DNA from: a virus | Lineage: Duplodnaviria > Caudoviricetes | Length of the DNA stretch: 64,000 nt | Virus record (IMG/VR): IMGVR_UViG_3300020576_004326 | Location: 22,919 to 86,918 of that record | Strand: one strand, 5' to 3' | Shown here: positions 4,766 through 37,621 of the stretch, piece after piece | Layout of the letters: each line of letters begins with the position of its first letter | How positions within the stretch are numbered: position 1 is the first letter of the stretch | Translations under genes and position numbers: made by a program | Notes under the pieces: model-generated | The model's database searches: none | What the model was told of the DNA's origin: nothing | The model's input: only the letters and a program-made list of their open reading frames with translations

Positions 4766-6157
4766 TGCTACCACTCGATCCTAGACGACGCCGCTCGGCG
4801 CCTGGGCGAAGATGAGCTGTACCGCATCAAAGACGGCTTCGTCTTCTACAAGCCCCCGGCCCTGTGGCTCTCGCCGTCGTCTCCCTCTCGCCGTAACCTC
4901 CGCGGCCGAACTCGCGTGTTCGCGGGCGTAGACGAAATGGGCCACTTCTCCGAGAGCACCGACAAGGTGAACATATCGGGCCTCGAGGTTTGGCGTGCTC
5001 TCACCCGCTCGCTGTCGACCGTGCGACCCGCCGTGCGCCGCCTGCGCAAGAAGGGCGTCGTCAACGTGCCGCCCGCCATCGCCGTGTCGATCTCGTCCCC
5101 CTGGGAGGTGAGCGATCCGCAGATGCAGCTCTACAACGCCGCGGAGCGCCAGGGCAGCACCTACGCCATGATGCGCCCGACCTGGGAAGCCAACCCCGAC
5201 ATCACGTTCGAAGACTTGGCCGACGAGTTCGCGCTCGATCCGGCTACCGCCTGGCGCGACTACGGCTGCCGCCCGCCCTACTCCGCCGCGTCGTTCGTCA
5301 ACGGCCTAGACCCGTTCAAGCGGTGCATCGATCGCACGCTGCGCAACGCCGTCGCCCAGCGTACCGTAGTCGTTCGACCCAAGTCGAAGAAGGAGGCCAA
5401 GAAGCTGCGCGGCATCTCGGTGTCGGCGAAGCTCAAGTTCAGGTGGGAAGACGACTCGGTCCCGAAGATCATGGCGCTCGACGCCGGCAAGCACAAGAAC
5501 GCCTTCGCGGTGTGCGTCGCGCACATCGACTCGGAGGGGCGCCTGGCCTACGACGCCTTCGTGGAGGTGCGCCCGCGGCACAACAAGCCCGTGTCGTTCA
5601 CCCGCGTGTACGAGAAGGTGCTGCTGCCGCTAGCCAAGCGCATGAACGTAGTCGTCACGATCTCGGATCGGTGGCAGCAGGAGACTATCGTAGAGAAGCT
5701 GTCGGAGGACGCCGACACGGAGCACTTCAACCATCGCCTGACGTACGGAGAGTTTCAGGCGTGGCGCGACGACCTGATCCACGAGCAGCTCGTGCTCCCG
5801 AAGCCCGAGAAGAAGGTGAAAGAGATTCTGCACGTCGAGGGTCCCGAAGAGTCGGCGTTCGACGACTGCCCCGTGTCTCAGTTCATTCGCCAGAGCATAC
5901 GCGTCGTAGACGTTCCCGGCAAGACGGTAGACAAGCCGGCGGTAGGCAACGACGACGTGTTCCGCACGGGCGTGCTGGCTCACGCCGGTGCCCAGCTCCC
6001 CGAGATAATCGAGCTACTCACGCAGGGTGAGGTGGGCCGTAAGGCCGTCGGGGGCATCGGCGCGGTGGCCACCGTAACAGGCGGCGGCAGCTCGCTCACC
6101 GTCGCGAAGGGCATCGGGGTGGCGGCCAAGGGCTCGGTGGGCGCCGTGGCGCGCTGA
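4622..6157 (+). CDS. terL: terminase large subunit, C-terminal part (IntC, Walker B and RNase H-like nuclease)
   Basis: IntC ending HN|C; Walker B FAGVDEMG; nuclease motifs IMALDAG, DRWQ, NDDVFR. Start could be 4607 or 4622. Confidence 0.85.
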   Translation: MSLVKLKDGSSVSVARLSRKTLVGEARVFDIEVRDHHNFYAGGINVHNCYHSILDDAARRLGEDELYRIKDGFVFYKPPALWLSPSSPSRRNLRGRTRVFAGVDEMGHFSESTDKVNISGLEVWRALTRSLSTVRPAVRRLRKKGVVNVPPAIAVSISSPWEVSDPQMQLYNAAERQGSTYAMMRPTWEANPDITFEDLADEFALDPATAWRDYGCRPPYSAASFVNGLDPFKRCIDRTLRNAVAQRTVVVRPKSKKEAKKLRGISVSAKLKFRWEDDSVPKIMALDAGKHKNAFAVCVAHIDSEGRLAYDAFVEVRPRHNKPVSFTRVYEKVLLPLAKRMNVVVTISDRWQQETIVEKLSEDADTEHFNHRLTYGEFQAWRDDLIHEQLVLPKPEKKVKEILHVEGPEESAFDDCPVSQFIRQSIRVVDVPGKTVDKPAVGNDDVFRTGVLAHAGAQLPEIIELLTQGEVGRKAVGGIGAVATVTGGGSSLTVAKGIGVAAKGSVGAVAR

Positions 6158-6277
6158 GGCGCTTCACCCTCGCGGCTATCGCAGAAGACGTCGTGCTCGG
6201 GGCGCTCAACCCCGAGCATTTTCGCGTCTTCTTAGGACGAGTAAATATATTTCGTTCTCTAGCAAGGGCGGTGTCAT

Positions 6278-7018
6278 ATGCGCTTCGAAGTTCAACCCGG
6301 GGATCGCTTTGGTGATATTATAGTCTTGCAAGAACTTTCACACTACGTTTCTCCAAAGGGGTCGATCAAGCGAAGGTTCCGTTGCCGATGTCGATGTGGG
6401 TTTACTGACGAGTACCTTCTACCTCATATAAGAAAAGGAAAAATGCGTGCCCATGCTTGTAGGATCACCGGATCTGACCGAGCGTATAACCGACACGGAC
6501 TGAGTAAGCACCGCCTGTACACCGTATGGAAAGATATGATCCGGCGATGCTATAATGATAAGCATCCTCGGTACGCAGATTACGGCGGCCGCGGAATTAG
6601 GGTCTGCAAGTCGTGGCGAAGATCGGTTGCAGAGTTTATAAACTGGGAAGAATCGCTTCCTCAAAAGACGCGCTGGTCTGCAGGCAAGAGCTTGGATCGT
6701 ATCGACAACGATGGCGACTACTCTCCGAATAATTGTCGGTGGGCTACTGCTCTGGAGCAAGCTAATAACCAGCGACCGAAGCGACCAAGAGATCCTAAAT
6801 CTTTCTCTGGAGGTCGTAGTCCTTATCTCTTGGTTACTTATAAAGGCCGACGCCTGTTGGCCACAGATTTGTACGAGATGTACGAATCTTCGGGTGCTCT
6901 GGGTATGGGAGTTACCTACGACACCTTCCTTCGCCGCATACGGGAAGGCCTCAAGCCCAGAGTTGCGCTTACCCGGCCCAGATACGCTAGAAATACTACA
7001 AAAACGGGGCATTCTTAG
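6278..7018 (+). CDS. free-standing HNH homing endonuclease
   Basis: YGGRGIRVCKSW and LDRIDNDGDYSPNNCRW motifs, CRCRCG N-terminus, AT-richer than flanks. Confidence 0.85.
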   Translation: MRFEVQPGDRFGDIIVLQELSHYVSPKGSIKRRFRCRCRCGFTDEYLLPHIRKGKMRAHACRITGSDRAYNRHGLSKHRLYTVWKDMIRRCYNDKHPRYADYGGRGIRVCKSWRRSVAEFINWEESLPQKTRWSAGKSLDRIDNDGDYSPNNCRWATALEQANNQRPKRPRDPKSFSGGRSPYLLVTYKGRRLLATDLYEMYESSGALGMGVTYDTFLRRIREGLKPRVALTRPRYARNTTKTGHS

Positions 7019-7044
7019 CCGTTCGCCTTTCGTTCTCCCTCGCC

Positions 7045-7073
7045 TTTACAGGGGGCTAGAACGGTGCTATACT
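7045..7073 (+). promoter_or_regulatory. sigma70-type promoter
   Basis: TTTACA-N17-TATACT in intergenic DNA upstream of a run of small genes. Confidence 0.7.
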
Positions 7074-7148
7074 AGAGACGCGAGCGATTCGCTCGCCGGG
7101 GGCGATTCGTCGTCACCGCATTTCGACGGACTTTCAAGGAGCATTTCG

Positions 7149-7364
7149 ATGATCGAAGCGATGAGCAAGACGCAAGTCGGCGTGTGGGACTACGCTCGGC
7201 AGAAGTTTATCGAGTTCGTGCCCTGCCCGGGCGAGAAGCGCGTGCGTATCGACGTGTACGACTCGCTCGACAACTACGGAGTCTTCGCGGGCACCTACCA
7301 GGGCCGCACGTTCGTGCCCACCGACGGCAAGCAGCTGTCCGACTGGCAGATCGACCTCACCTGA
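7149..7364 (+). CDS. small hypothetical protein
   Basis: AAGGAG RBS then ATG; GC3-rich codons. Confidence 0.6.
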   Translation: MIEAMSKTQVGVWDYARQKFIEFVPCPGEKRVRIDVYDSLDNYGVFAGTYQGRTFVPTDGKQLSDWQIDLT

Positions 7365-7375
7365 AGGAGAACGAC

Positions 7376-7639
7376 GTGCGCCAGAAGCAGTACCGCGGCA
7401 GGCAGCAGGCCGGCCGCATCGTGGTGGTCCAGATATCTAGAGAGGTCCACGAGCGCATACGCGAACTCGCGGCCCAGCGGCAAGAGCGCATAGGGGTGCT
7501 GTCTACGCGCCTGATGGACTTCGCCCTCGACAACTACCCCGCCGCCGACCTCGCGGCGAAGGAGAAATCGGGTTCGCAGTTCGACGAACTCGAACGGCGG
7601 GTCGCCGCCCTCGAAGCTCGCTTCGCCGAGCAGCGCTGA
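7376..7639 (+). CDS. putative ribbon-helix-helix DNA-binding protein
   Basis: AAGGAG RBS, GTG start; VVVQISREVHERIRELAAQ pattern. Confidence 0.4.
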   Translation: MRQKQYRGRQQAGRIVVVQISREVHERIRELAAQRQERIGVLSTRLMDFALDNYPAADLAAKEKSGSQFDELERRVAALEARFAEQR

Positions 7640-12827: not shown

Positions 12828-13288
12828 GCCATGCACATCCACCTCACCGAGAAGCGTAAGTTCCTTATCGTCCCCAGATTTCCGGAGGGTGTAGCCAAAG
12901 ACTGGCGCATCCCGCTGGGAGACCTGAATCTCGAGGTTACGACCGACTTGGTCGTGCGTAAGCTGCAGTCGGCGTCTCGCGGCAGATTTAGCAATCTCAA
13001 CCTGTCGTGGCACGAAGCCATTCTGCTGCCGTACGGCTTCTACGACAACTGCCGAATCAGCAACGCGATTCTGGTCGGAGGAGAGTACTCTAAGTGCAAC
13101 ATGAAATATACGAGGCTGGTAGTAGAAGGCCGCCGAGAATCGCGAAAAGCGCCAGCGCCTGCTCAAGGAGCTGGAGGCCCGCCGCGACGCCAAGATCGGC
13201 ACGATGTCGGAAGAAGACATCCTCAAGGAACTGGAGGGCCTCGACGGCCCGTCGCTCGCCGCGGCCGAGTAAAGATCGGCGACGCTTC

Positions 13289-13364
13289 GGCCCCGTAGCT
13301 CAGCGGTACGAGCGGCTCGTTTACACCGAGAAGGTCGCAGGTTCGATTCCTGCCGGGGCCACCA
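13289..13364 (+). tRNA. tRNA-Val (anticodon UAC)
   Basis: Acceptor stem GGCCCCG/CGGGGCC, D arm GCTC/GAGC, loop TT-TAC-AC, T arm GCAGG-TTCGATT-CCTGC, encoded CCA. Confidence 0.92.
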
Positions 13365-13369
13365 ACAAC

Positions 13370-13407
13370 TTGGGGAGGAGAGCCGTTCGCGCGACTCTCC
13401 TCCCCAA
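13370..13407 (+). terminator. hairpin after tRNA
   Basis: 13-bp inverted repeat TTGGGGAGGAGAG/CTCTCCTCCCCAA. Confidence 0.55.
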
Positions 13408-13563
13408 CTCGCATGCTAGAGACGGAGCGACGCAGTGAACTACGAACTCTTGATGCTGAACGACGCGGTCGTGATGGTAGAACGGGGCTGGACACAGCAG
13501 ATACTCGCCCGCGGCACCGCGGGCGCCACGTCTCTATCTCCCAAAGCCGAAGGAGGGTAGCCC

Positions 13564-13950
13564 ATGAAGTGCTGCTTCTGCCCCGAGTCCGTTGAGCACG
13601 CGCGGGAGCGTGCCGGCCTCTCATGCTGCAAGGCGTGCGGAGACGCGGCCGCGAAGTTCGACCTGGCTTACAAGCACTCGCAGGTAGGTCCCGCGTACAA
13701 CAAGGGCTCGCTCCAGTTTCTAGGCGGCGACAAGTTCCGCAGCAACGCACTAGACGCCGGGCGCAAGACGAGCGCGGTGGTGCCCGACGCTATACCCGAC
13801 GCCGCTCCCGCGAAGCGCACCGCGCCCAGCGCACGACGCCGGCGAGTGGGCACGATGTGGACCGCAGACGGCGACTGCTTCGTGCTGTACGCCGGTGACG
13901 ACCCCAAGAAGCGCGGTGCGGTGCGCTTCGTCTTCTCTCAGGAGAACTAA
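13564..13950 (+). CDS. hypothetical protein with N-terminal Cys cluster
   Basis: CCFC...CCKAC; GGAGG RBS. Confidence 0.55.
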   Translation: MKCCFCPESVEHARERAGLSCCKACGDAAAKFDLAYKHSQVGPAYNKGSLQFLGGDKFRSNALDAGRKTSAVVPDAIPDAAPAKRTAPSARRRRVGTMWTADGDCFVLYAGDDPKKRGAVRFVFSQEN

Positions 13951-13951
13951 G

Positions 13952-14317
13952 ATGGCTAAGCACAGCTGGACGAAATCTACACTGGGTCACGGGGAGCAGA
14001 TGTGCTCCAAGTGCGGAATCACGAACAGGGAAGCGTCGATCTTGGGCAAGCTAGAGTCGTGCAGCGTCGCCGACCCTCCTGCCGTGTACGCTGCCCCGTC
14101 GGAGGAAGGATACTACTGGGCGAAGCTGGTGACGCCCTCCGAGATGCCGGCCACCGAAGACTGGGTATCTGAGCAGTGGGAGATCGTCGAGGTATTCGAC
14201 AACAACGGCGAAGGCGACGAGAGTCTCGGCGTGGCGGTTCCTGGCGTTCCTCCCACGCAGTGGGTAAAGAACTTCACCTGGGGTCCTCGCATAGAGAAGC
14301 CCGACAACTTAGAGTAA
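13952..14317 (+). CDS. hypothetical protein
   Basis: AGGAG RBS; CSKC motif. Confidence 0.55.
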   Translation: MAKHSWTKSTLGHGEQMCSKCGITNREASILGKLESCSVADPPAVYAAPSEEGYYWAKLVTPSEMPATEDWVSEQWEIVEVFDNNGEGDESLGVAVPGVPPTQWVKNFTWGPRIEKPDNLE

Positions 14318-14330
14318 AGGAAGAGAAGCA

Positions 14331-14711
14331 ATGAGCATCGGTATATACTGCATCACCGAAGAGGCGTTAGAGATAATTCGCGCCTCCCTCAGAGTAGCAG
14401 CCGTGCGCGGCGGGGTGGTAACCGAAGCGGGCCGCACGATATCCGACGCAGAGTTCTCGCACGTACTGAGCGACGTGCTCCGGGCCGCGCCGCCGTCTAG
14501 GTGGGCCGCGAGGAACGAACCCGACCCCCACGACTCTCGCTACGACTGCGAGAGGAGCGAGCTGATCGGCGGCAACCTGTCCGACGACGAGGTCGCCAAC
14601 GCAGTGTTCATGGCTCCAGACATACACACAACCACAATCGCCAAGGATCGCATCAGATGGCTATCGAGGAAGCTGGCCGAGAAGCAGAAGACTTCGCCCG
14701 CCAGCTCCTAG
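14331..14711 (+). CDS. hypothetical protein
   Basis: Purine-rich RBS region; its 3' end overlaps the sigma factor start. Confidence 0.5.
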
Positions 14712-15178
14712 CGCAGCGCAAGTTTCTGAAGCGCCTCGCGATCAAGCTGTCTGGCGGACGCGACGCGGAGGACCTGGTTCAAGAGACGCTGCTCAAGGCG
14801 CTTACGAAGCGGCACCTGTTCGACGGCACCAACTTGCCGGCGTGGCTCTCTACGGTGCTGCGCAACACTTTCCTGTCGCGGTATCGCAAGTACCACCGCG
14901 AGATAGAAGACGTAGACGAGGCGGCCGCCCTGTCGCTCGTGCAGCACCCCAGCCAGCACCACACGGCCGAGCTGTCGGAGCTGTACGACGCACTTGCGCA
15001 GCTACCCTACGACCATCGCGAGACGCTGCTGATGATCGCCGTAGATCGTCTCAGCTACGCGGAGGTATCCGAACTGGCCGGCGTACCCGAAGGAACGGTA
15101 AAGAGCCGCGTATTTCGGGCGCGCGAGGCACTGGCACGCATACTGGGGGTGGAGCCGCCCCCGCGCGAAGATGAGTAA
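14657..15178 (+). CDS. ECF sigma factor, EcfG/SigT-like
   Basis: Region 2 [14 protein letters not shown] and [16 protein letters not shown]; region 4 [25 protein letters not shown]. Confidence 0.88.
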
Positions 15179-15232
15179 AATCACAGCAGAGGCTGCTACC
15201 GCACCTCTGCTTTTTTCTGGCGGAGAAACCCG

Positions 15233-16372
15233 ATGAATAACGACGGTACGCGAATCGAGGCTCCCTACTGCCTGTTCCTGGCAGACGCCACCGACCCCAA
15301 GGCGATCAAGACGGCGTCGGGCCTCGTAGAGTGGGCTCCGGATCGCGTGGCGTGCGAGTACGGCCTGCCGGGCTGCACCGTGTCCGCGGGAGTCCCGCGC
15401 GCCGAGACGCTCAACGAGGCGGTCGAGAAGTACGGCGCCAAGACACTCGTGGTCGGCGTCGTCACCAACACGGGAGACACGCTGCCCGCTCCCTGGAAGA
15501 AGGCCTTCCGCCTGGCCATGACCGCCGGCCTCGACGTCGCGAGCGGGATGCACGACAGGCTGTCCGACGACGCCACCCTCGTCCACTATTCGATGAACAC
15601 GGGCACCCAGCTTCACGACTTTAGGTACACGCCCAAAGAGTACAAGATCGGCAAGGGCGTCCCGCGCCCCGGCATCCGCGTCATGGTCGTCGGCCAAGAC
15701 TGCAACATCGGCAAGAAGTACACGTCCGTCGCGCTCACTCGCGCGCTCGTCAACGCCGGCGTAGACGCCTCGTTCCGGCCCACCGGCCAGACTGGCGCGC
15801 TTATCGCGGAGGGCGAGCGCAGCGTCGTGGTGGACACCGTCGTGTCCGACTTTCTGACGGGAGCCGTCGAGTGGCTGTGCCCGGCCGCGGCGCCCGACCA
15901 CGTCGACGTGGTGGAAGGGCAGGGCTGCCTGTGGAGTCCCGGCAGTGGGCAGCTAGTCGTCTCGCTCATCTACGGCAGCCAGCCCGATTTCTTGGTGATG
16001 TGCGTCGATCCCCCGCGCACGAAGCTGCGCGGCCTCGACTACGAGGTTGTCGACCCCGTGTTCGATATAGAGTCGAATCTGCAGTTCGCGCGGCGCGTCA
16101 ACCCGCACGCGAGGCTCCTCGGCATTTCGGTGAACCTCTCCCACGTTCCGCTCCACGAGACTGCCGCCGTCATGGCAAAGTACGACGTCGTAGCCGGCTG
16201 CTTTCGCGGAAGCATCGGCAGTAAAGATTTCGTGCCGCGAGCGTTCGACCCCAACGACGCCGTCTCTATGTCGCGCGCCGTGTCGGCCGTGAAGCTGCTG
16301 GCGGAGCAGAACGCCGCGGGCAACCACCGCAACGTCTCCGACACGAAGTTCATGTCGGCGAAGACTTTCTGA
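15233..16372 (+). CDS. DUF1611 (DgcN-like) protein, paralogue A
   Basis: DVASGMH, VGQDCNIGKKYT, PTGQTG, VEGQG, GSQPD motifs typical of DUF1611. Confidence 0.85.
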   Translation: MNNDGTRIEAPYCLFLADATDPKAIKTASGLVEWAPDRVACEYGLPGCTVSAGVPRAETLNEAVEKYGAKTLVVGVVTNTGDTLPAPWKKAFRLAMTAGLDVASGMHDRLSDDATLVHYSMNTGTQLHDFRYTPKEYKIGKGVPRPGIRVMVVGQDCNIGKKYTSVALTRALVNAGVDASFRPTGQTGALIAEGERSVVVDTVVSDFLTGAVEWLCPAAAPDHVDVVEGQGCLWSPGSGQLVVSLIYGSQPDFLVMCVDPPRTKLRGLDYEVVDPVFDIESNLQFARRVNPHARLLGISVNLSHVPLHETAAVMAKYDVVAGCFRGSIGSKDFVPRAFDPNDAVSMSRAVSAVKLLAEQNAAGNHRNVSDTKFMSAKTF

Positions 16373-16384
16373 GAGGACGATACT

Positions 16385-17485
16385 ATGATGCTCCCGCACG
16401 AGTGCACCCCTCCCTACATCCTGTACCTGGGAGACTCGACCACGCTCGACGAGATAAAGACGGCGACCGGCCTGCTCAAGTGGCGCCCCGAGTGGTGCAC
16501 GGGGTTCTACGCGGAACCCGAGTGCACCGTGACGCACGCGATGGGCAACCTCCCCCGCATATCTACCGTGCAGGAAGGCGTCATACTGGGAGCCAAGACG
16601 TTCGTGATCTGCTGCGTCGCGCGCGGCAGCAAGCTATCGCCGGCGTGGTACGAGACGGTGGCCAACTGGATCAGTTCGGGCAGCGGCATCGACGTAGCCA
16701 CCGGAACGCACGAGCGCATCAAGTCTCACCCCCAGTACGCCAAGCTGGCGGAGGCATCGGGCTGTCGCCTCGTAGACTATCGCCACCACGACACGCAGTA
16801 CCCCCTGTGTCGCGGCGAGAAGCGCTCGGGTCTGCGCCTGCTCACTATCGGTCACGACGGCTGCGTCGGTAAGAAGTACACGTCGCTCGCCCTGTGTGCC
16901 GAGCTAAAGCGGCGCGGCATCGCTCACAAGTTCGCACCCACCGGACAGACGGGCGCGCTTATCGCAGGCGCCGAAGACAGGTCGATCGTGATCGACTCTA
17001 CCGAGGCCGACTTCGCCTCGGGCGCCGCGGCGTGGCTCACGCCTCCCGCCGAAGACGCGGGCTTCTGGTACGTGATCGAGGGGCAGGCCAGCCTCTTCCA
17101 CCCCGGCTGGGCTCCCCCGAGCCTCGCTCTACTCTACGGCAGCCAGCCCGACGCCCTCGTGTACTGCATCGACCCGACCCGTCGGCTGCAGCTAGGCACC
17201 GCCCTCCGAGTCGTCCCGATGGCTGCAGAGATCGACCTGAACCTGCAGCTGGCGCGGCGCGTCAATCGCGGCGTCGCTCCCTACGCCGTGAGCGTGAACA
17301 TGGCGAACGTGCCTCCCGAAGACTACGACCTCGTCATGGCCGGGGTGCGCGACGAGGTATCGCAGCTCAGCTACGACGTGTCGGTGATCGACCCCAATCG
17401 ACCCGACACGTTCTACCACCTCATCGAGCGCATGGTGAGCCGCTCGGTAGAGGTGCGAACGCGCGCGGCGGAGGTGCCCGAATAA
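16385..17485 (+). CDS. DUF1611 (DgcN-like) protein, paralogue B
   Basis: IGHDGCVGKKYT, PTGQTG, IEGQASLFHP, GSQPD motifs. Confidence 0.85.
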   Translation: MMLPHECTPPYILYLGDSTTLDEIKTATGLLKWRPEWCTGFYAEPECTVTHAMGNLPRISTVQEGVILGAKTFVICCVARGSKLSPAWYETVANWISSGSGIDVATGTHERIKSHPQYAKLAEASGCRLVDYRHHDTQYPLCRGEKRSGLRLLTIGHDGCVGKKYTSLALCAELKRRGIAHKFAPTGQTGALIAGAEDRSIVIDSTEADFASGAAAWLTPPAEDAGFWYVIEGQASLFHPGWAPPSLALLYGSQPDALVYCIDPTRRLQLGTALRVVPMAAEIDLNLQLARRVNRGVAPYAVSVNMANVPPEDYDLVMAGVRDEVSQLSYDVSVIDPNRPDTFYHLIERMVSRSVEVRTRAAEVPE

Positions 17486-18456
17486 TGGCGTCGATGGACC
17501 TCAAGCTGTGCAAGTCTTCGCTCTCTGTCGGAGCCAAGATACGCGACCTGTTCGAGCGCCACATGCGCGAGAAGCTGGGCAAGAAGAGCAAGCGCGTCGC
17601 TCTCTTGCTGTCGGGGGGCATCGACTCGGCGCTGGCGGGCATAGCGGCCACGCGCGCGGGTCACGAGGTGCACGCGTACACCTTCCGAATGGCAGGGCAG
17701 CCCGGCTTCGACGACAAGTGGGCCGAGCACACCGCCAAGGTGATGGGGTGGAAGTGGGAGCTGATAGAGCTTCCCACCGACCTCTACGCCGTGGCGGGCC
17801 TCGTGCCGATGATGCACGACGAGTTCGCCTGTCGCCTCAAGCGCAACTACGAGTGCCTCTGGCCTCTCCTGTTCTCCTACGCGAGCATCGAAGAGAAGTT
17901 CGTCGTGTCGGGCCTCGCGGCAGACAACCACTACATGCCGAACCGCAAAGCCCAGAAGCTGGGGGCGCGCGACGACAAGGGCGTATTCGACGAGCTCCGA
18001 TCGGGGTCGTTCGCCAAGCTGCACGAGGGCGGCATAGACGCGCTGTCGCGAGACTACAACCCCGCTAACCTGTGGATGAACCTGCAGGCCGAGCGGCACT
18101 TCGGGAAGGTAGGAGTAAATCCCTACCTAGAGCGCGAGCTGTACGACCTGCTCCTCCCGTTCGACTGGAACCAGCTGCACAAGCCTCGGCAGAAGCACCA
18201 CCTCGTGGGTGCGTACCCCGAGGTGATGAAGTACGTGGGGCACCGTAATCATCGTAACTACCAAAACGCCGGGATAGACACGCACTTCGAGAAGCTCCTC
18301 GAGACGCCTCTCAACATCAAGAACTCGCGCCGCGCGCTAGACATGTACGCGTCGTGGCGACACCACCCCAAAGATTTCGCGAAGGCGCTGTCTAAGGTGC
18401 GCGACAAGTACGCGGCGAAGGCCGAGAAGCTGCTTACGCGCAAGAGCAAGAGGTAG
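17485..18456 (+). CDS. Asn-synthetase-like PP-loop ATP-dependent amide ligase lacking a glutaminase domain (CmoY-like candidate)
   Basis: LLLSGGIDS PP-loop, VVSGLAAD (cf. AsnB VLSGEGAD), NPYL (cf. VPFL); ATG overlaps the upstream TAA. Confidence 0.75.
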   Translation: MASMDLKLCKSSLSVGAKIRDLFERHMREKLGKKSKRVALLLSGGIDSALAGIAATRAGHEVHAYTFRMAGQPGFDDKWAEHTAKVMGWKWELIELPTDLYAVAGLVPMMHDEFACRLKRNYECLWPLLFSYASIEEKFVVSGLAADNHYMPNRKAQKLGARDDKGVFDELRSGSFAKLHEGGIDALSRDYNPANLWMNLQAERHFGKVGVNPYLERELYDLLLPFDWNQLHKPRQKHHLVGAYPEVMKYVGHRNHRNYQNAGIDTHFEKLLETPLNIKNSRRALDMYASWRHHPKDFAKALSKVRDKYAAKAEKLLTRKSKR

Positions 18457-18460
18457 CAAA

Positions 18461-19552
18461 GTGAAAGCGATAGACTGGAGAGACTCTGCGTCGCACAAGC
18501 TGGTTCGCTTCGTGTGCGAGCGCTACGGCGCAGTGGCCGCCGAGCTTGCGTTCGGGCTCACGCGCGGTACCGTTCGCGGCTTCGTGCACAGAGAGCGCGT
18601 AGTGATCGTTCCTTCTAGCCACGCCGACCAGTTCTCGGCTCACGCACTGGTAGAGTTCTGCATCAAGGAGGGCATCACGCACGGCGGACTGCCCGCCACC
18701 GAAGGCGGGCACTTCGGGAACCCCGTCCTCGAAGAAGTCGCCGCCGTAGACTGCTCTAAGGTGCAGACGCGGTACCTCGCTCGTCTCACCGAGAAGACGC
18801 TGTACGCTACGTCTCCGCGTCCTAGAGCCGCTCCGAATCCTCCCGCTCCGAAGAAGGTCGCGGTGAAGCCGAAGGCGCTTCCAGTTCCCGCACCATCTAC
18901 TGAACCCGTTGCGGAGAAAGAACCCGAGCCGAAGCCTGCGGTGGTTGAAGCGTCTGAGCCCGTCGAGGTCAAGGCGCCCGAGCCCGTAGCGAAAGCACCG
19001 GAGAATGCCGAGGCCTCCGCGCCCTCGGTTCCTAAGCACTCTTCTGCGCCTCATCCTCTTGCCCCCGCTCGCAGCGTAAGCGCGGCCTCGGCTCGGGTAG
19101 ACGCACACCGCCCCGTTCGAGATCGCGTCCCTTCCGCAGCGGAGGTGCGCGCCCTAGAGTTCGACTCGACCGAAGACGTAGAGTACTTGGTCGAGGTTCC
19201 CGGAGAAGACGCGGCGCGACTCGCTCGTCTCCGCAAGAAGTTCCCGAACGCCGTCAACTTCTTCAAGGCCAAGGCGATAATGCAGGCGGGGGTGCGCACG
19301 AACGTGTGCCGTACCCCGCTGTGGGACCTCGACCCCGAGTGCCTGTCTACCGAGTCGCCGTATCGCGTCAAGTACAGCAACTATCTCCGAGATCGCTCGC
19401 GCTACGTCTGCGGCAACCCGACAGAATCTACCGACTCGTTCACGTGCCGAGCCTGCGCCCGCGCACTGGGTGATCCCGTTCGCGGCAAGAGCTACGTGCG
19501 GTTTACAGGCAAGGGCGACGGGTCTGCGTCGCGCTTCGTTAAGAGGAGCTGA
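18461..19552 (+). CDS. hypothetical protein with Pro/Glu/Lys linker and C-terminal Cys cluster
   Basis: PEPK-rich middle region; YVCG...CRAC near the end. Confidence 0.6.
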   Translation: MKAIDWRDSASHKLVRFVCERYGAVAAELAFGLTRGTVRGFVHRERVVIVPSSHADQFSAHALVEFCIKEGITHGGLPATEGGHFGNPVLEEVAAVDCSKVQTRYLARLTEKTLYATSPRPRAAPNPPAPKKVAVKPKALPVPAPSTEPVAEKEPEPKPAVVEASEPVEVKAPEPVAKAPENAEASAPSVPKHSSAPHPLAPARSVSAASARVDAHRPVRDRVPSAAEVRALEFDSTEDVEYLVEVPGEDAARLARLRKKFPNAVNFFKAKAIMQAGVRTNVCRTPLWDLDPECLSTESPYRVKYSNYLRDRSRYVCGNPTESTDSFTCRACARALGDPVRGKSYVRFTGKGDGSASRFVKRS

Positions 19553-19555
19553 CTC

Positions 19556-20119
19556 GTGCTGCTATCCGACGTAGACTTGTGCCGACTAGGCGAGTCGTTC
19601 ATATCTCCCTTCACCCCGGAGCAGGTAAAGGTCTGCGACGCCGAGAGGCTCGTGTCCTACGGCGCCTCCAGCTACGGATACGACGCGCGGCTGGCTCGCG
19701 AGTTCAAGGTGTTCACCGACCTCAAGTGCGCGGTCATGGACCCGAAGAACCCGCCCGACGACGCGTTCGTCTCGATGGAGGCTACGGCAGGTAAGCCGTT
19801 CGTGATCCCGCCGCGCGGTTACGTGCTCGGGCGCACCGTGGAGCACTTCTCGATGCCGCCCGACGTGCTCGGGCTCTGCGTCGGCAAGTCTACCTACGCG
19901 CGCTCGGGGCTCATCGTCAACGTGACGCCGCTAGAGCCTGCGTGGCGCGACTTCGTCACGCTAGAGTTTACGAACGCGCTGCCGATCCCCATGCTCGTCT
20001 ACCCTGACGAGGGCATCTGTCAGTTCCTCTTCTTCCGCGGACCGCCCTGCCGCACGAACTACGCCGACCGCGGAGGTAAGTATCAGGACCAGGTGGGCGT
20101 CGTTCTTCCCAAGATGTAG
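19556..20119 (+). CDS. dcd: dCTP deaminase
   Basis: SYGYDARL, GKSTYARSG, TPLEP, EGICQFLF, YADRGGKYQDQ. Confidence 0.93.
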   Translation: MLLSDVDLCRLGESFISPFTPEQVKVCDAERLVSYGASSYGYDARLAREFKVFTDLKCAVMDPKNPPDDAFVSMEATAGKPFVIPPRGYVLGRTVEHFSMPPDVLGLCVGKSTYARSGLIVNVTPLEPAWRDFVTLEFTNALPIPMLVYPDEGICQFLFFRGPPCRTNYADRGGKYQDQVGVVLPKM

Positions 20120-20402: not shown

Positions 20403-21575
20403 ATGGCGAAATATCGCGGGGTAGCGTTCGCGGGGTTCGGCGGCGTAGGCAAGAGCGAGGCTACGTCTTACGCCTGCGCTCTGCTCGACGCTCAGCGCGT
20501 GCACGTCAAAGACGTGCTGGGGGAGTGCATCGCACCCATGCTGCTGCGGCTGGGCGTGTCGGTACCCGAGCTGCACGACTACGTGTACGGGGCGAAGAAA
20601 GACGCTCCGTTGCCTCTCGCGCCAGAGCTATCTGCGGTCAAGCTACTGCAGGCGCAAGGCAACGGATTCCTCCTAGACTGCGGAGACCCCATGCTCGCGC
20701 AGCGCCTCGTTCTCGATAAGTTCCCCGAGACGATACCCGTCGTAAACGAGAGCCTGCGCTACCCGCGCGAAGCCGCCTACCTCAAGAGTCGCGGCCTGTT
20801 CATCGTTCGCATCACGCGTCCAGGCTACGACGGAAAGCGCACCCTAGACGGCGCCCTGCACGAGAGCGAGCGCGGGGCGCTAGAGATCGACGCCGACGCC
20901 GAGATACTTAACGACGGCGACCTGTCGAAGCTGTTCGCAGGAGTGCGCGAGGTTCTAGACTACGCAGGTTTCTACATCACGCGCGAGCAGCGAACTGTAG
21001 GCCACGTAGTCGTGGTGAACGGCAAGCCGCGCGCCGGCAAAGACGAGTTCTGCGCGCTCGTCGCCAAGTACTGCGAGGCGCGGTGGATGATCCCTGTGGG
21101 CACGTTCTCCACCATCGACCCCGTGCGCGAGCTGCTCGCGCACGTAGACGTAGACGTTACGCAGAAGCGCCCGGAGGATCGGCGCCTCCTGTCGGTGCTC
21201 GGAGAGGAGCTGGAGCGTCACTCCGACTTCAAGACGAAGACGACGCTGCGGCGCACGGGGGATCACGCTACTCGCGGCATCGCCTTCGTGCACGCTCGCG
21301 AGGGGCACACCATCGAGAAGCTGCGCTCGCAGGTCGAGTGTATGCTCCCGCGTTCGACGTTCTCTACGCTGTGGCTGTCTCGCCCCGGCTACGACCACCC
21401 CGAGCCGTCGAACGACTCGGATCGCATCGACGGCTCCGAAGTCTGCTACGACTGGAGCGTCGCTAACTCGGGGTCGCTGCTAGACTTAGAGTTCGCCGCG
21501 GCGCGCTTCGCCGACCTGCTGCTGTCGGGCGCCGCGACGGCTCACGTAAACGCCCTGGGCATGTCTGCCCGATAG
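20403..21575 (+). CDS. tandem two-domain deoxynucleoside monophosphate kinase
   Basis: Two P-loops, GFGGVGKS and GKPRAGKD, each followed by dNMP-kinase-like motifs (SLRYPRE, HESE, ILNDG; SVANSG). Confidence 0.7.
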   Translation: MAKYRGVAFAGFGGVGKSEATSYACALLDAQRVHVKDVLGECIAPMLLRLGVSVPELHDYVYGAKKDAPLPLAPELSAVKLLQAQGNGFLLDCGDPMLAQRLVLDKFPETIPVVNESLRYPREAAYLKSRGLFIVRITRPGYDGKRTLDGALHESERGALEIDADAEILNDGDLSKLFAGVREVLDYAGFYITREQRTVGHVVVVNGKPRAGKDEFCALVAKYCEARWMIPVGTFSTIDPVRELLAHVDVDVTQKRPEDRRLLSVLGEELERHSDFKTKTTLRRTGDHATRGIAFVHAREGHTIEKLRSQVECMLPRSTFSTLWLSRPGYDHPEPSNDSDRIDGSEVCYDWSVANSGSLLDLEFAAARFADLLLSGAATAHVNALGMSAR

Positions 21576-22291: not shown

Positions 22292-24392
22292 ATGGCAAAC
22301 GGATACGAGCAGCAGTACCTCGATCTCCTCGAGACGATCATGACGAAGGGAGTTCGCAAGCGCGACCGGACGGGAGTCGGAACGACGTCTCTGTTCGGCG
22401 CCCAGCTTCGGTTCGACGTCGGCAGAGAGTTCCCTCTCCTGACGACGAAGAAGCTGTTCACGCACGCCATCATGGTGGAGCTTGAGTGGATGCTTCGCGG
22501 CCACACGAACGTCCAGTACCTGCAAGAGCGCAGATGCACCATCTGGGACGAGTGGGCAGACGAGAAGGGCGATCTGGGTCCCGTCTACGGCAAGCAGTGG
22601 CGTGAGTGGGCGCACGAAGTATGTGAAGAAGACCCACGCGGTGTCGTTAGTTCAATTTGCAGGGATGAACCCATCGACCAGATCGCGCTGGCGCTCGACC
22701 TCCTCAAGAACGACCCCTACTCTCGTCGCAACGTCGTCACGGCGTGGAACCCCGCCGACAACCCAAAGATGGCGCTGACGCCCTGCCACTGCCTGTTTCA
22801 GTTTAACTGCAGGCCTCTTTCGGTACAAGAGAAGATAACCTTACTACGCGCTCGGGGTCGAGTCTTACCCGACGCGGGCGACGCGGTATCGGGGCCGCAG
22901 TCGTCTACGGAATACCCGGCTGACCTAGGAGATGCTCCGCAGTTCTACATCGATCTGCATCTCTACCAGCGTTCGAATAATGAGCGCCTCCACTGAGTAA
23001 TCGGTGAAGCAAACTCTGCTAAACGGGGAACGGTCACCGACCCAATCCCGTGCTAAACTTCGTCCAGACGTGCTTTTAGGATTCGCGTTCAAAGTAAACT
23101 TCTCCTATAGGGGAGAAGCACGATGGCCGTGACTTACATAATAGAACACGTCGGTAGTGGCAAATTCTACGTCGGCAGCACAGGTAAACCGCATCTTAGG
23201 TTTGACCGTCATTGGCGAGCACTTAGAAGTGGTGCACACCACTGCATACGCCTTCAACGTCTGTGGAATAGATGCGCTGGTGAAGGGTTCAAGATAAAAG
23301 TCTTGCGCCGTGATTCGCTAGAACGCTGTCGTGCGTTAGAGGGGCGATACCTTTCATCGTCGAAAATACGCAATAGGTTGCTTAACAGCAGCTTATCAAT
23401 CGCGTACGGAGACACGACGGGTAATCATCCCGAGAAGCAGAAAATCATCGCGAAGCGCAGCGCTGCTGCTCGCGCCGTTAACGCCAAACTTTCACCAGAA
23501 GAGCGTGCAGCAATGCATAGACGTCCTGGTGCACAGAACGGAATGTACGGCAAGAAGCACTCTCGTAAATCTCTTGCGATGATGAGTAGAGCAAACAAAG
23601 GTAACTCGTATGCTGCGGGATCGGTACGGTCTGCAGAAACTCGCGCCAGACTATCTAAGGTCGCGCAAGAGCGAGTCGGGAAACTAAACGGGTTCTTCGG
23701 TAAGCATCATAGTGCAGAAACCAAAGAGCGCATACGTCAGAAGAAAATTGGGCACCGCCCCACCAATCTTCGTCCCGTCAAAGTAGGTAAGCAGCGCTTT
23801 GATAGCGTCGCCGATGCCGCTAGATACCTCAATGTTGTCTCCGCCACGGTACTTTACCGTATAAAGGCGCGTAGCGCCAAGTATGCTTCTTACCGCTATC
23901 TGGACGAATAAATGCCTAACGACTATCGAAACCGTTCCTATCAGGAACAGGGAGTAGAGTAGGGCCAAGCGGCTCGAAATGCAGAGGGTCCCTTCGGGAT
24001 CGTGATATAGTCTGATCTGTGCGGCAACGTACAGCAGTTCTCGAAAGAGAACGGAGACGGCTTAGCGAACCGTCTTGAACATATTGTCAGCCGACGTGTT
24101 CCTGGGCGTCCCCTTCAACATCGCCAGCTACGCCATGCTACTGATGATAATGGCGCGGTGCGCGGGGCCGAAGTACGCCGTGGGCGAGTTCGTGCACTCT
24201 TTCGGAGACGTGCACGTGTACACGAATCACGAAGAGCAGGTGCGAACCCAGCTCTCGCGCGCGCCCCGGCGCGGCCCTCGCGTGTCGCTGGCGCTCTCGG
24301 AGAACGCCAAGCCCTGGGACTTCACGCACGAGAAGGTACTAGTCGCAGACTACGCTCCGTGGCCCACTATTGCTGCACCCGTAGCAATTTAG
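22292..24392 (+). CDS. thyA: thymidylate synthase (exons 22292-22972 and 24087-24392)
   Basis: [26 protein letters not shown]|[24 protein letters not shown]. Confidence 0.95.
22973..24086 (+). ncRNA. group I intron in thyA
   Basis: 5' exon ends in U with P1 pairing GCGU|UC:GAGCGC; intron ends in G; core-like ACGACTA and GATATAGTCTG segments; splicing restores QR-SAD. Confidence 0.88.
23123..23911 (+). CDS. intron-encoded GIY-YIG homing endonuclease with NUMOD3-like repeats
   Basis: TYII...FYVGST...RF..H; GMYGKKHS and [12 protein letters not shown] repeats. Confidence 0.9.
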   Translation: MAVTYIIEHVGSGKFYVGSTGKPHLRFDRHWRALRSGAHHCIRLQRLWNRCAGEGFKIKVLRRDSLERCRALEGRYLSSSKIRNRLLNSSLSIAYGDTTGNHPEKQKIIAKRSAAARAVNAKLSPEERAAMHRRPGAQNGMYGKKHSRKSLAMMSRANKGNSYAAGSVRSAETRARLSKVAQERVGKLNGFFGKHHSAETKERIRQKKIGHRPTNLRPVKVGKQRFDSVADAARYLNVVSATVLYRIKARSAKYASYRYLDE

Positions 24393-24612: not shown

Positions 24613-24924
24613 ATGAAGTGCCCGAAGTGCGGCGCAGACGTCTCCGAGTCGCTGGAGGAAGACGACCCTTCCTGCGGCATCGTCGGCGGATACTACTGCG
24701 ACGCTTGCGACCTGCCGATACCCTACGAGTACGAGCCGCACGACGACGACGTAGACGTGTTCTTCGTCGACAGGGAGTGGCGGGATAAGATCGCGACCGA
24801 CCCCGACGCCGCCTACGCACGCGACCGCCCGCTCGGGACGCCTATCTCCGAGATTTCTACGCGGCCCGGTGAACCGGGCTACGAGGAGTGGATTCGCATA
24901 TCCAAGTCGTGGGGTTACGACTAG
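24613..24924 (+). CDS. zinc-ribbon hypothetical protein
   Basis: CPKC...CDAC; GGGAG RBS. Confidence 0.55.
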   Translation: MKCPKCGADVSESLEEDDPSCGIVGGYYCDACDLPIPYEYEPHDDDVDVFFVDREWRDKIATDPDAAYARDRPLGTPISEISTRPGEPGYEEWIRISKSWGYD

Positions 24925-24940
24925 AAGAAACGAGAGGCAC

Positions 24941-25345
24941 ATGATCATCAGCCTGATAGCCGCCGTGGGCAAGCACGGACAGATAGGCCTGAAAGGCGAG
25001 TTGCCCTGGCGCGACGAGGCCGACATGGAGTGGTTCTCGAACTGCACCGAGAACGGCCTCGTAGTCGTCGGTAAGCGCACGGCTCCCTCGATGGGCAGAG
25101 TTCACGGCTCTCGCGGCAGGTTCCTCTACGTGCCGACGCGCGACGACACCCGCACCTCGCTTATCGCCCTCGCCGAGAGCGTCTACTGCAAGTCGGTATG
25201 GATCGCTGGCGGGGCGATGCTGTACGACTCGTGGATGCACCGCGTCGACCGCGTGCTCGTGTCGCGCGTGAACTACGACGGACCTGCAGACGCCTGGATG
25301 CCCGACCTGTCGTGGTCCCCGTTCGCCGTGGCACGAGGAACTTGA
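24941..25345 (+). CDS. folA: dihydrofolate reductase
   Basis: IAAVGKHGQIGLKGELPW, DMEWF, VVVGKRT, IAGGAMLY. Confidence 0.88.
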   Translation: MIISLIAAVGKHGQIGLKGELPWRDEADMEWFSNCTENGLVVVGKRTAPSMGRVHGSRGRFLYVPTRDDTRTSLIALAESVYCKSVWIAGGAMLYDSWMHRVDRVLVSRVNYDGPADAWMPDLSWSPFAVARGT

Positions 25346-26055: not shown

Positions 26056-26562
26056 GTGGCGACCGTGGCCGCTAGACTGCACGAAGCGGCAGGCTCGGAG
26101 GCGAGGGCTGCTTCGGTGCCCGTAGCCTTCGTCGGCGAAGCACCCGGCCCGCGCGACACGACGTCAAGGACCCCGCTATGGAGCCTCAGGAAGAGCTCGG
26201 CGGGGTATCGTCTGAGAGCCATGACGGGGCTAGACCGCGCGTCGTGGATACGCCGCGTGCCCAAGTTCAACCTCGTGCCCTACCGCGTTACGCGCTGGCC
26301 GCGAGAGTTCGCGGAGCAGCAGGCTCAGAACCTCTGCTCGTCGCTGCTTCGCGACTACGACTTGATCCTCTGCGGGCGCAAGGTAGCGCGGGCGTTCGGC
26401 GTACCCGCGAAGCAGCCGTGGCTTACGTGGACGAAGTCGCCCTGGGGACCGCACGTAGTCGTGATACCTCACCCCTCCGGCCTGTGCCGCGAGTACAACG
26501 ACCCCGCGTTCGTCAGGCGCGCGTCTCGCTTCTTAAAGCGGGTCCTGAGAGAATACAGGTAA
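26056..26562 (+). CDS. uracil-DNA glycosylase superfamily protein (family 4/5-like motifs)
   Basis: FVGEAPG motif A and PHPSG motif B; start uncertain. Confidence 0.7.
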   Translation: MATVAARLHEAAGSEARAASVPVAFVGEAPGPRDTTSRTPLWSLRKSSAGYRLRAMTGLDRASWIRRVPKFNLVPYRVTRWPREFAEQQAQNLCSSLLRDYDLILCGRKVARAFGVPAKQPWLTWTKSPWGPHVVVIPHPSGLCREYNDPAFVRRASRFLKRVLREYR

Positions 26563-26573
26563 GGGCAGCTCCT

Positions 26574-27404
26574 ATGAGTAAGAAGATAGCAGGAGTTTAC
26601 CTTATCAAGTGGGCCCAAAGCGATAGTTTCTACATAGGGTCTTCAATTAACGTCGTCCGTAGAATAAGCGAACACTTTCACGCGCTGCGCCGAGGAAAGC
26701 ACTATAATATCGCGCTAACTGCCGCCTACAGAAAGTATGGCGACACCATGACGTACTACGTCTTACAGACTATAACCAGCAGAAGGGCTTACCATAAGCC
26801 GTACGTTCTGCACGATCTAGAACAAGATTGGATAGACGACCTCGATCCAAAATACAATAGAACTAATGAAGTTAGAGCCCCATCCAGAGACCCTAGAGTT
26901 GCGCTGCGAATCTCTAGATCGCTTAAGGGTCGCCCGCTATCTACCGAAGCGCGAGAGAACTTGAGCAGAGCCTTAGTAGGGCGTAAATTATCTGCAGATC
27001 ACAAGAGAGCCATATCTAGAGGTCTTATCGGAAGAGAAATGTCTGCAGATACTCGCAGATCTATAGGAAATGCCAATAGAGGAAGAACAGTATTTCCAGA
27101 GCACCGCGATAAGATTAGAGCAGCGCTTACTGGCTACAAGCATACGCCAGAAGCGCGAGCAAATATGAGCTCGGGCCAACGCGGTAAAGTGCTGTCCCCG
27201 GAGCACGTAGAGAAGATACGCAAACGAAATACAGGATCTTACAAACTGTCTTCAGATCAATTGGTCAAGGCACGATCTCTATTCGCAAGATTGAGAGGGT
27301 CTGAGCGCAGCAGACTTTTACGGATAGCAGACGACTTCGGCGTTTCTTTTTCTACCGCAAGAAACGTAGTTCGCATGGTAGGACCATACAGGAGAATAAA
27401 ATGA
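26574..27404 (+). CDS. GIY-YIG homing endonuclease with NUMOD3-like repeats
   Basis: GVYLI...FYIGSSINVVRRISEH; repeated ..H..KIS..L.G units; AT-rich. Confidence 0.88.
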   Translation: MSKKIAGVYLIKWAQSDSFYIGSSINVVRRISEHFHALRRGKHYNIALTAAYRKYGDTMTYYVLQTITSRRAYHKPYVLHDLEQDWIDDLDPKYNRTNEVRAPSRDPRVALRISRSLKGRPLSTEARENLSRALVGRKLSADHKRAISRGLIGREMSADTRRSIGNANRGRTVFPEHRDKIRAALTGYKHTPEARANMSSGQRGKVLSPEHVEKIRKRNTGSYKLSSDQLVKARSLFARLRGSERSRLLRIADDFGVSFSTARNVVRMVGPYRRIK

Positions 27405-31285: not shown

Positions 31286-32152
31286 ATGACCGAAGACGCT
31301 AAGGGCCTGAGCTGCGCGGCTCGTGCCGAACTCCTTAGAGAGACTGTCGATGCCTACCTCGACGCCCACGATCTAGGCACCAGCCTCTCACTGAGAATAG
31401 ACGAATGCTCTTTCGGTCGAGAGGCACTTGCCGCGTGCCTCGAAGAGGCCAAGAGTGCGGGAGACCTCTTCGGCGTCGCCATCGCGACCGAGCTGCTTTC
31501 CCTCCCCGACGATGTTCTGACGGTGGCCTCCGACTGCGGCCTCAGCGCTGCACTTGATCGCTGGGTGGAGGCTACGGAGCCGCAATCTGCGTCGCCGAGT
31601 TTCTCTCTACCGCCGACTAACGGTCTCACGTGGCTTCCGCCCATCCTGCGCTATCACGAGATAGTAGACTCGTTCGAGAGGGAACCCCTTTTCGTAGGCG
31701 ACGAGCTGATAGTAGGCAAGGGGCTGGAGGTAAGCGAGATAATACACCCCGCCGACGACCAGCGCCACCCTGCGTTTGCAATCATAGATTGGTTCGCAGT
31801 CGGTCTGTCGAAGTTCGCAGTTCTCCGTCAGCCTGTCGGCATCGTGCTCCCCTTGCCGAGGAACCATCCCGGAGTAGCCGTCCAAGAATTCTGCGCGACG
31901 ATTCGATACGAGTCGAACCCTATGCTCGGAAAATATCGTCATAAGTTTGCGGCCGTGTACGGGATACTACAGGAGGCTGTTCTACCCTCGAAGTCTACGG
32001 TGGCGACCAAGCCCGTGGCTTTCCTGACTCACCTCGGGTGGTACGACGGCTACGTGCAGTCGATAGGCTGGGACGGAGAGACTAACACGTTCACCGTCAT
32101 CGGCGGAGTACGCAAGCGCGCCAAGACAGAACAGCTGGAGACCGCGCGGTGA
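31286..32152 (+). CDS. hypothetical protein
   Basis: ORF coupled to the downstream transferase (GTGA overlap). Confidence 0.5.
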   Translation: MTEDAKGLSCAARAELLRETVDAYLDAHDLGTSLSLRIDECSFGREALAACLEEAKSAGDLFGVAIATELLSLPDDVLTVASDCGLSAALDRWVEATEPQSASPSFSLPPTNGLTWLPPILRYHEIVDSFEREPLFVGDELIVGKGLEVSEIIHPADDQRHPAFAIIDWFAVGLSKFAVLRQPVGIVLPLPRNHPGVAVQEFCATIRYESNPMLGKYRHKFAAVYGILQEAVLPSKSTVATKPVAFLTHLGWYDGYVQSIGWDGETNTFTVIGGVRKRAKTEQLETAR

Positions 32153-37471: not shown

Positions 37472-37621
37472 ATGAAGCTCTACACCGCGCTAGACATACC
37501 GACGATGGCCGAGATAAACGCGAAGCGCAAGAAGTTCGTCGGCGCCAGCCTGTTCTCGGGCTGCGGAGGAGCCTCGGTCGGCATGAAGCTGGCCGGCATC
37601 GACGTGAGGTGCGTCGGATGA
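37472..37621 (+). pseudogene. orphaned original 5' end of the second CmoX-like gene (49 aa)
   Basis: MKLYTALDIPTMAEINAKRKKFVGASLFSGCGGASVGMKLAGIDVR; a second copy starts at 38077. Confidence 0.85.

Follow-up and report, generated by a model that had tools for sequence, protein, structure and literature searches.

A block of three genes at positions 15233-18456 of a 64,000-nucleotide stretch of viral DNA (hereafter the window, bases 22919-86918 of the 86.9-kb IMG/VR viral contig IMGVR_UViG_3300020576_004326) encoded two paralogous DgcN-like proteins of the DUF1611 family, DUF1611-A and DUF1611-B, and an amide ligase related to CmoY. In the Synechococcus phage S-B43, the enzymes CmoA, CmoX and CmoY produce 5-carboxymethylcytosine (5cxmC) and 5-glycylcarboxymethylcytosine (Yang et al., Nat Commun 2025, PMC12783734); this pathway was published in December 2025 with glycine as the only attached amine identified, and the study also describes groups of ligases whose amine was not identified (PMC12783734). 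Gene order and trees gave good support to a link, inside the CmoA/CmoX system, between phage-type DUF1611 genes and one particular CmoY subclade. On a modest balance of the evidence, the three genes work together as an accessory cassette in the phage 5cxmC system whose product would be an N-acyl-aminoacyl amide and not 5cxmC-glycine, and the phage DNA probably carries a base not yet described. Homology, writer motifs, conserved gene linkage, a cassette swap and purifying selection made up the observed basis of this reading.

Wherever the DNA downstream of a phage-type DUF1611 gene could be read (about 11 lineages), the ligase gene was the next one or one gene further on. A translated search (tblastn) of DUF1611-A against 50,697 cultured phage records matched 34 of them, all Alexandravirus, and the four Alexandravirus loci read (including L017 and L022) displayed DUF1611 between CmoA and the ligase. 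Among IMG/VR loci with CmoY-like ligases, 9 of 80 harbored DUF1611, these nine being Alexandravirus, and most of the others were plain ligase/CmoX/CmoA clusters. The IMG/VR pattern scan with DUF1611 gave Alexandravirus only, and the remaining lineages were obtained from protein searches. Relatives L097 and L100 shared the A-B-ligase order of the window, L122 possessed a single A-type DUF1611, and the P0142 contig a single B-type gene followed by the ligase, dcd and DNMK. DUF1611 was likewise followed by the ligase in L125 and L126. In metagenomic loci L120/L121 the order was CmoX, a 100-amino-acid (aa) open reading frame (ORF), CmoA, DUF1611 and ligase, and metagenomic locus L127 was a four-gene cluster of CmoX, DUF1611, ligase and CmoA. 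Locus L128 encoded CmoA, a glycosyltransferase-like gene, DUF1611, a racemase-like gene, the ligase and a DAHP-synthase-family gene; the last, directly 3' of the ligase (9943-10806 of L128), could feed the shikimate pathway toward prephenate, the CmoA co-substrate.

A first, sequence-only reading of the window had proposed that the DUF1611 pair makes, acylates or extends the amine ligated to 5cxmC, and it was partly supported. The system does not require a tandem pair: most lineages harbored a single DUF1611 copy, of A-type or B-type. Nor is the link with the ligase confined to this DNA, since Erwinia and Dickeya phages in culture have it too. The same reading would have been abandoned had phage DUF1611 genes proved unassociated with cmoA and cmoX; association with CmoA, CmoX and the ligase was tight. 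In the cultured phages, DUF1611 stood between CmoA and the ligase or at one gene's distance from each, and two metagenomic clusters (L120 and L127) joined CmoX, CmoA, DUF1611 and the ligase contiguously. Its description of the block itself held in every detail. Both paralogues were full length and separated by exactly 12 nt, the TGA stop of A (16370-16372) being followed by an ATG at 16385, and the ligase ATG at 17485 started on the last A of the TAA stop of B (TAATG overlap). The three-gene block gave no match to cultured phages by megablast. It was conserved in relatives with DUF1611-A 73% (L097) and 56% (L100) identical to that of the window, and the ratio of nonsynonymous to synonymous substitution rates (dN/dS) relative to L097 was 0.28 in DUF1611-A, with lower values in DUF1611-B (0.14) and the ligase (0.15). 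The block is not a chance arrangement, being kept in relatives with dN/dS of 0.14 to 0.28.

Alexandravirus genomes displayed the same association in a simpler form. In Dickeya phage AD1, a CmoA-like gene (016), DUF1611 (017) and the ligase (018) followed each other, and the cassette of pEa_SNUABM_1 was interleaved with two further genes, one for a 420-aa protein and one alanine/serine-racemase-like. Atlas features of the 420-aa protein led to GT-B glycosyltransferases, as a lead only, and its AlphaFold2 (AF2) model was poor, with a mean predicted local distance difference test (pLDDT) score of 54. Erwinia phage phB78, also an Alexandravirus, lacked DUF1611; its flanking genes were 73-91% identical to those of AD1 while its ligase was only 25% identical to AD1_018, which indicates that DUF1611 and ligase were exchanged as a unit. 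Phage Y3 was another natural relative devoid of DUF1611. At the same locus beside CmoA (about 13-17 kb), closely related Erwinia jumbo phages harbored at least five CmoY-like ligase types, with 25-36% identity to the window ligase, and the locus looks like an exchange hot spot for hypermodification chemistry. In the neighborhood of the PaBG ligase no annotated arginase was found, and the small adjoining ORFs had no Pfam match.

The ligase (17485-18456, plus strand, 323 aa) was assigned as a CmoY-type, PP-loop, adenosine monophosphate (AMP)-forming amide ligase on the basis of homology to SpCmoY, phrog_26038, its position in the ligase tree, and the AF2 model with Foldseek. Throughout the synthetase domain its sequence is homologous to that of the characterized SpCmoY (E 3e-34, with 30% of residues identical in a 258-aa alignment). 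Its Pfam match covered only positions 1-136 of Asn_synthase, the synthetase part, and no glutaminase domain was found in its 323 aa by Pfam and NCBIfam profile searches. The AF2 model (pLDDT 93.8) had beta-lactam synthetase, AsnB, human ASNS and carbapenam synthetase, with chains of about 500 residues, as its top Foldseek matches. Because of the partial Asn_synthase match and these structural matches, the protein was classified as an AMP-forming carboxylate-amine ligase without glutaminase domain. The relationship to CmoY and the missing glutaminase domain had both been proposed from the sequence alone, and the alignment, the tree, the retained invariant residues and the model agreed with them. 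It was the sole Asn-synthase-like gene in the contig.

Ligases linked to DUF1611, from the window lineage and from Alexandravirus, formed one clade nested in the CmoY-like family (Shimodaira-Hasegawa-like approximate likelihood ratio support of 99). They retained every residue invariant in the CmoY family, and displayed conserved residues of their own (R120, R154, G252-H253-R254 and R257) as well as an insertion of 13-19 residues at about positions 173-191, which in the window protein numbers about 19 residues. The clade-specific residues R120, R154, H253, R254 and R257, together with the insertion, suggest that the attached amine is one other than glycine. The isoelectric point (pI) of DUF1611-linked ligases was 9.4, against 8.5 for other CmoY-like ligases.

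DUF1611-A (15233-16372, plus strand, 379 aa) and DUF1611-B (16385-17485, plus strand, 366 aa) were assigned to the A-type and B-type phage subclades of DgcN-like proteins from Pfam, NCBIfam and trees, and for A also from PDB 7XRJ. The Pfam domains DUF1611_N and DUF1611 were matched by both proteins (E 2e-44 for A and 2.5e-40 for B), and in the superfamily test (PF17396 and PF07755) both domains scored above the Pfam gathering scores. The NCBIfam DgcN model (NF041892) gave 312 bits for A and 274 bits for B, below the equivalog cut-off of 480 bits. DUF1611-A matched PDB 7XRJ with E 3e-69; we take this entry to be the DgcN structure, its annotation being only a putative NAD-dependent epimerase/dehydratase family protein. 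DgcN is an acetyl-coenzyme A-dependent N-acetyltransferase of D-glutamate, as reportedly described by Yu et al. in 2023 in ISME J. Its gene is presented elsewhere as the key one in a pathway of D-Glu racemization (PMC12363236), the DUF1611 family is known for amino-acid N-acyltransferases, and a distant member of the DUF1611 family was predicted to be an N-succinyl-L-glutamate synthase (PMC13759103).

The two window copies were 38% identical to each other. A branch with support 99 separated the 58 sampled bacterial DgcN-like proteins from the A, B and Alexandravirus copies of phages. In a wider tree, of weakly resolved backbone and unknown rooting, A-type and B-type proteins formed separate old clades, each with single-copy relatives, and the Alexandravirus type formed a third group. 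The P-loop, TGQTG and EGQ motifs were retained in the phage proteins. In a comparison with 26 bacterial DgcN-like sequences (positions in A numbering), eleven residues were kept in all groups (H107, R131, R145, D156, K161, Q186, D201, D206, E228, Q230 and R262). R44 and H247, invariant in the 26 bacterial sequences, were replaced in the phage types, and further DgcN-invariant positions (R35, Q42, D225 and H258) were replaced in some of them. Neither window copy kept R44, H247, Q42 or H258; A had a replacement at R35 as well, and B at D225 and E213. The loss of R44 and H247, joined in some phage types by R35, H258 or D225, suggests a different acceptor.

Position 213 was Ala in the three tandem B copies (window, L097 and L100). 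It was Glu in 26/26 bacterial sequences, in tandem A copies, in the Alexandravirus type and in the single-copy B-type relatives (P0142 and P0159); one single-copy A-type representative also had Ala. The Ala of the tandem B copies may reflect a change of role after pairing. The idea that B is a decaying pseudo-enzyme was ruled out by its dN/dS of 0.14. The DUF1611 proteins were acidic (pI 5.5-6.1, compared to 5.7 for DgcN). The genomic partner of DgcN is DgcA, an enolase-superfamily racemase; searches of the 86.9-kb contig, which covers about 33% of the genome, gave no DgcA-type (MR_MLE) gene and no alanine-racemase gene, in agreement with the earlier remark that DgcA is not in the window.

The genes required to write 5cxmC, which the sequence-only reading had placed in the same genome, were encoded there as one CmoA candidate and two CmoX-type genes. 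The CmoA-like carboxy-SAM synthase candidate (39814-40614, plus strand) matched the CmoA equivalog model TIGR00740 over its full length as the best-scoring model, with 83 bits against a cut-off of 193 bits; the validated SpCmoA, with 116 bits on the same model, also remained under this cut-off. The candidate was 29% identical to SpCmoA and 33% identical to AD1_016. A CmoX-type C5 transferase 34% identical to SpCmoX (E 7e-52) was encoded at 37609-39090 (plus strand), with its catalytic part running from around residue 157, and a paralogue with intein at 32149-34377 (plus strand; Pfam DNA_methylase with Intein_splicing/Hint). Yang et al. call CmoX by an SPPC motif and an Arg equivalent to R350 (PMC12783734). 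By sequence, both window genes carry these published marks, namely SPPC and an Arg aligned to SpCmoX R350, the arginine for carboxy-SAM, in the context ERLGR-I/S-HVP aligned with ERVGRMVPP. The intein of the paralogue was placed directly after the catalytic SPPC motif. In AD1, gene 048 (L102) was an intein-bearing CmoX with SPPC and Arg and a large insertion at the same site. The N-terminal extension of about 156 residues in the other CmoX ORF (37609-38080) was absent from SpCmoX and from the paralogue.

Under the favored reading, CmoA would make carboxy-SAM and the two CmoX-type transferases would write 5cxmC into DNA. The distinct CmoY-subclade ligase would then adenylate the 5cxmC carboxylate and join it to an amine, and this amine would be tailored by the two DgcN-like proteins, acting as soluble acidic N-acyltransferases of the acyl-CoA type. 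Such tailoring would most likely be the N-acylation of one amino group on an amino acid with a second amine, maybe a D-isomer, and would lead to an N-acyl-aminoacyl amide of 5cxmC instead of 5cxmC-glycine. Coming from two old subclades, A and B would provide two specificities, or form a heteromer in which the active site of B is altered. We infer here the action of the ligase on 5cxmC in DNA, the acyl transfer by DUF1611, which donor and acceptor it would use, and the sequence of the steps; the biochemical role of DUF1611 is extrapolated from family membership. An acyltransferase of a soluble amine that retains a second amino group for the ligase fits the acidic pI of DUF1611, the basic residues lost relative to DgcN and the basic residues gained by the ligase, none of which is decisive. 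Some cassettes hint at D-amino-acid chemistry through their racemase-like genes, and the glycosyltransferase-like gene, an Atlas lead only, hints at a further decoration. A broader proposal, to which we give slightly less than even credence, is that phage-type DUF1611 proteins represent a new enzyme class that tailors hypermodified DNA bases: they would serve a CmoY subclade of their own, produce an N-acylated, possibly D-configured, aminoacyl amide of 5cxmC that is glycosylated in some Erwinia phages, and act as an A/B heteromer or add two groups.

Several points weigh against the N-acyl-aminoacyl amide. An N-acylated alpha-amine would be blocked for ligation, so that a substrate with two amines is needed, and nothing in the window points to one. 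The cassette of the window is located 20 kb from CmoX and CmoA and beside nucleotide-precursor genes, and the argument from pI is weak. The contig accounts for about 33% of the genome, and further ligases or partner genes may lie elsewhere. Finally, the lineages are not fully independent, as the window phage is a remote relative of Alexandravirus, with TerL, portal, thyA and CmoX collinear at roughly 29-44% identity.

Three other explanations were weighed against the same observations. DUF1611 could take part in the formation of the amide bond itself, the ligase adenylating 5cxmC and the DgcN-like protein presenting a D-amino acid (for example D-Glu or D-Ala taken from the cell-wall pool of the host) to the acyl-adenylate. 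The product would be an N-(cytosin-5-ylacetyl)-D-amino acid, the formal analogue of N-acetyl-D-glutamate, which DgcN makes. A 5cxmC-amino-acid amide would, as an N-(substituted acetyl) amino acid, belong to the class of DgcN products, and the translational coupling or adjacency of DUF1611 to the ligase in most lineages read, the joint swap of DUF1611 and ligase type, and the racemase-like genes of some cassettes would all suit this scheme. It is nevertheless unlikely, since the linked ligases keep all CmoY-invariant residues and SpCmoY alone does both steps (PMC12783734), acidic DUF1611 proteins are ill suited to DNA contact, and the DgcN-invariant R44 and H247 are lost in the phage types.

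That the cassette acts on a free deoxynucleotide, an RNA or another non-DNA target, within the precursor operon (dcd, dNMP kinase, thyA and DHFR), would explain why in the window lineage it was always syntenic with dcd and a dNMP-kinase-like gene and distant from CmoX and CmoA. This appears quite improbable given that DUF1611 and ligase were contiguous with CmoA/CmoX in other lineages, with no nucleotide-metabolism genes nearby, that the characterized homologue CmoY acts on duplex DNA (PMC12783734), and that the only Asn-synthase-like gene of the contig stands in a genome with two CmoX and CmoA. The DUF1611 genes might also be auxiliary metabolic genes, for instance for D-glutamate acetylation directed against host peptidoglycan precursor pools, adjacent to the ligase by chance or through shared timing. 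Their best database match was DgcN (312 and 274 bits) with core motifs intact, as would be expected of such genes. Against this stand scores that remained for both under the 480-bit cut-off, the supported branch between the sampled bacterial DgcN-like proteins and the window A/B and Alexandravirus copies, the loss of DgcN-invariant residues and the lack of a DgcA gene in the contig. The adjacency to ligases of one clade in about 11 lineages and the cassette swap are also hard to explain by chance, which leaves the auxiliary metabolic role very improbable.

The source is a jumbo phage, distant kin of the Erwinia/Dickeya Alexandravirus group. The contig represented about 33% of the genome (CheckV estimate) with a guanine-cytosine content of about 62%, and AD1 was collinear with it for TerL, portal, DUF1611, ligase, thyA and CmoX, at roughly 29-44% amino-acid identity. 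A terminator-like hairpin with U-run (15185-15217, plus strand; -19.8 kcal/mol, z = -3.36 relative to shuffles by RNA folding) lies between an extracytoplasmic function (ECF) sigma-factor gene and DUF1611-A, and marks the start of the transcription unit. This ECF-type sigma-factor gene (phrog_1740, 14501-15178), directly 5' of the cassette, was kept at the same place in L097, L098, L099 and L122, with weak PhyR_sigma2 matches in L097 and L099. A tRNA gene was detected further upstream (13289-13361, Rfam, 66 bits), and in L100 genes for a seryl-tRNA synthetase and an RNA ligase (5445-7381) preceded the DUF1611 pair by a few kb.

Downstream of the ligase, a gene at 18461-19552 (plus strand) encoded a conserved 363-aa protein in which a Pro-rich linker joins the N-terminal domain to a Cys-rich C-terminal one. 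It was conserved 3' of the ligase in the window lineage only (orthologues in L097, L100 and L122), and gave no match in Pfam, PHROG, NCBIfam, Atlas and PDB-profile searches; a resemblance to GcrA-type regulators was considered and dropped, as nothing in the searches supported it. In L097, an inserted antisense DUF7487 gene (13198-14208, minus strand) separated the ligase from the downstream gene, which there encodes 353 aa, and the DUF7487 family was also present in the P0142 contig.

The deoxynucleotide genes that the sequence-only reading had listed downstream (dcd, deoxynucleoside monophosphate (dNMP) kinase, thyA and DHFR) were all recovered on the plus strand, with thyA in two pieces. A deoxycytidine triphosphate deaminase-like gene (dcd, 19556-20119; Pfam DCD E 6e-28, phrog_1663) was followed by a gene for a protein whose N-terminal half was dNMP-kinase-like (20403-21575; phrog_139 E 2e-23 over residues 7-187) and whose C-terminal half had no assignment, the syntenic gene of a relative matching Pfam DNMK. 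The first part of thyA (22292-22996) covered positions 1-154 of the thymidylate synthase profile and the second part (24075-24392) positions 169-266. The two parts were about 1.1 kb apart with a GIY-YIG/NUMOD3 homing-endonuclease gene in between (23123-23911) and a weak Rfam group I intron match (23820-24034, 19 bits, under the 50-bit gathering score). The thyA split was also found in L097, and thyA of L100 was a single 383-aa ORF. Dihydrofolate reductase (DHFR) was encoded at 24869-25345 (Pfam DHFR_1 E 3e-19), and a second GIY-YIG/NUMOD3 endonuclease ORF, of 408 aa, at 26178-27404.

In line with the earlier statement that no report was known, full-text literature searches found no paper tying DUF1611 to DNA modification, the name being present in just two papers on other subjects, and the CmoX paper contained no mention of DUF1611 (PMC12783734). 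The Alexandravirus genes were annotated only as DUF1611 and asparagine synthase, without proposed function (PMC6143709). The present analysis gives one of the ligase clusters noted by Yang et al. a fixed partner enzyme, DUF1611, from a family whose only other known role is in D-glutamate catabolism. If the favored reading is true, a new DNA base would be added, DUF1611 would gain a second biochemical role, and an acylating step would become usable with CmoX/CmoY DNA-labeling chemistry. For the predicted base, cultured phages with DUF1611 (Dickeya AD1 and Erwinia Alexandra) and without it (phB78 and Y3) exist.

Compared to the S-B43 system, the window shared a CmoA-like candidate, C5-transferases with SPPC and a carboxylate-binding Arg, and a glutaminase-free, AMP-forming, Asn-synthetase-like ligase 30% identical to CmoY. 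It differed by a ligase belonging to a separate subclade, with Arg/His-rich positions and the 13-19-residue insertion, that was accompanied by an upstream DgcN-like gene in the lineages read (two copies in the window), by a ligase cassette 20 kb from CmoX/CmoA, and by two CmoX paralogues, one of them intein-bearing. With DgcN, the window proteins had in common the architecture of DUF1611_N and P-loop DUF1611, three motifs (P-loop, TGQTG and EGQ) and the eleven invariant residues, and they were 40-46% identical to DgcN-like proteins of bacteria. Unlike DgcN, the phage proteins scored under the equivalog cut-off, were separate from the sampled bacterial group in trees, had R44 and H247 replaced (in some also R35, H258 or D225), and were linked to a DNA-modification ligase, with no DgcA partner in the contig. 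Another close counterpart was the Alexandravirus cassette (AD1 016-018, Alexandra and the pEa_SNUABM series), in which DUF1611 lies upstream of a ligase of the same clade (35-36% identity), the CmoX intein occupies the same site and the backbone is collinear with that of the window phage. The Alexandravirus cassette differed from that of the window by a single DUF1611 of the third subclade, by CmoA adjoining the cassette, and by the racemase-like and glycosyltransferase-like genes added in some members.

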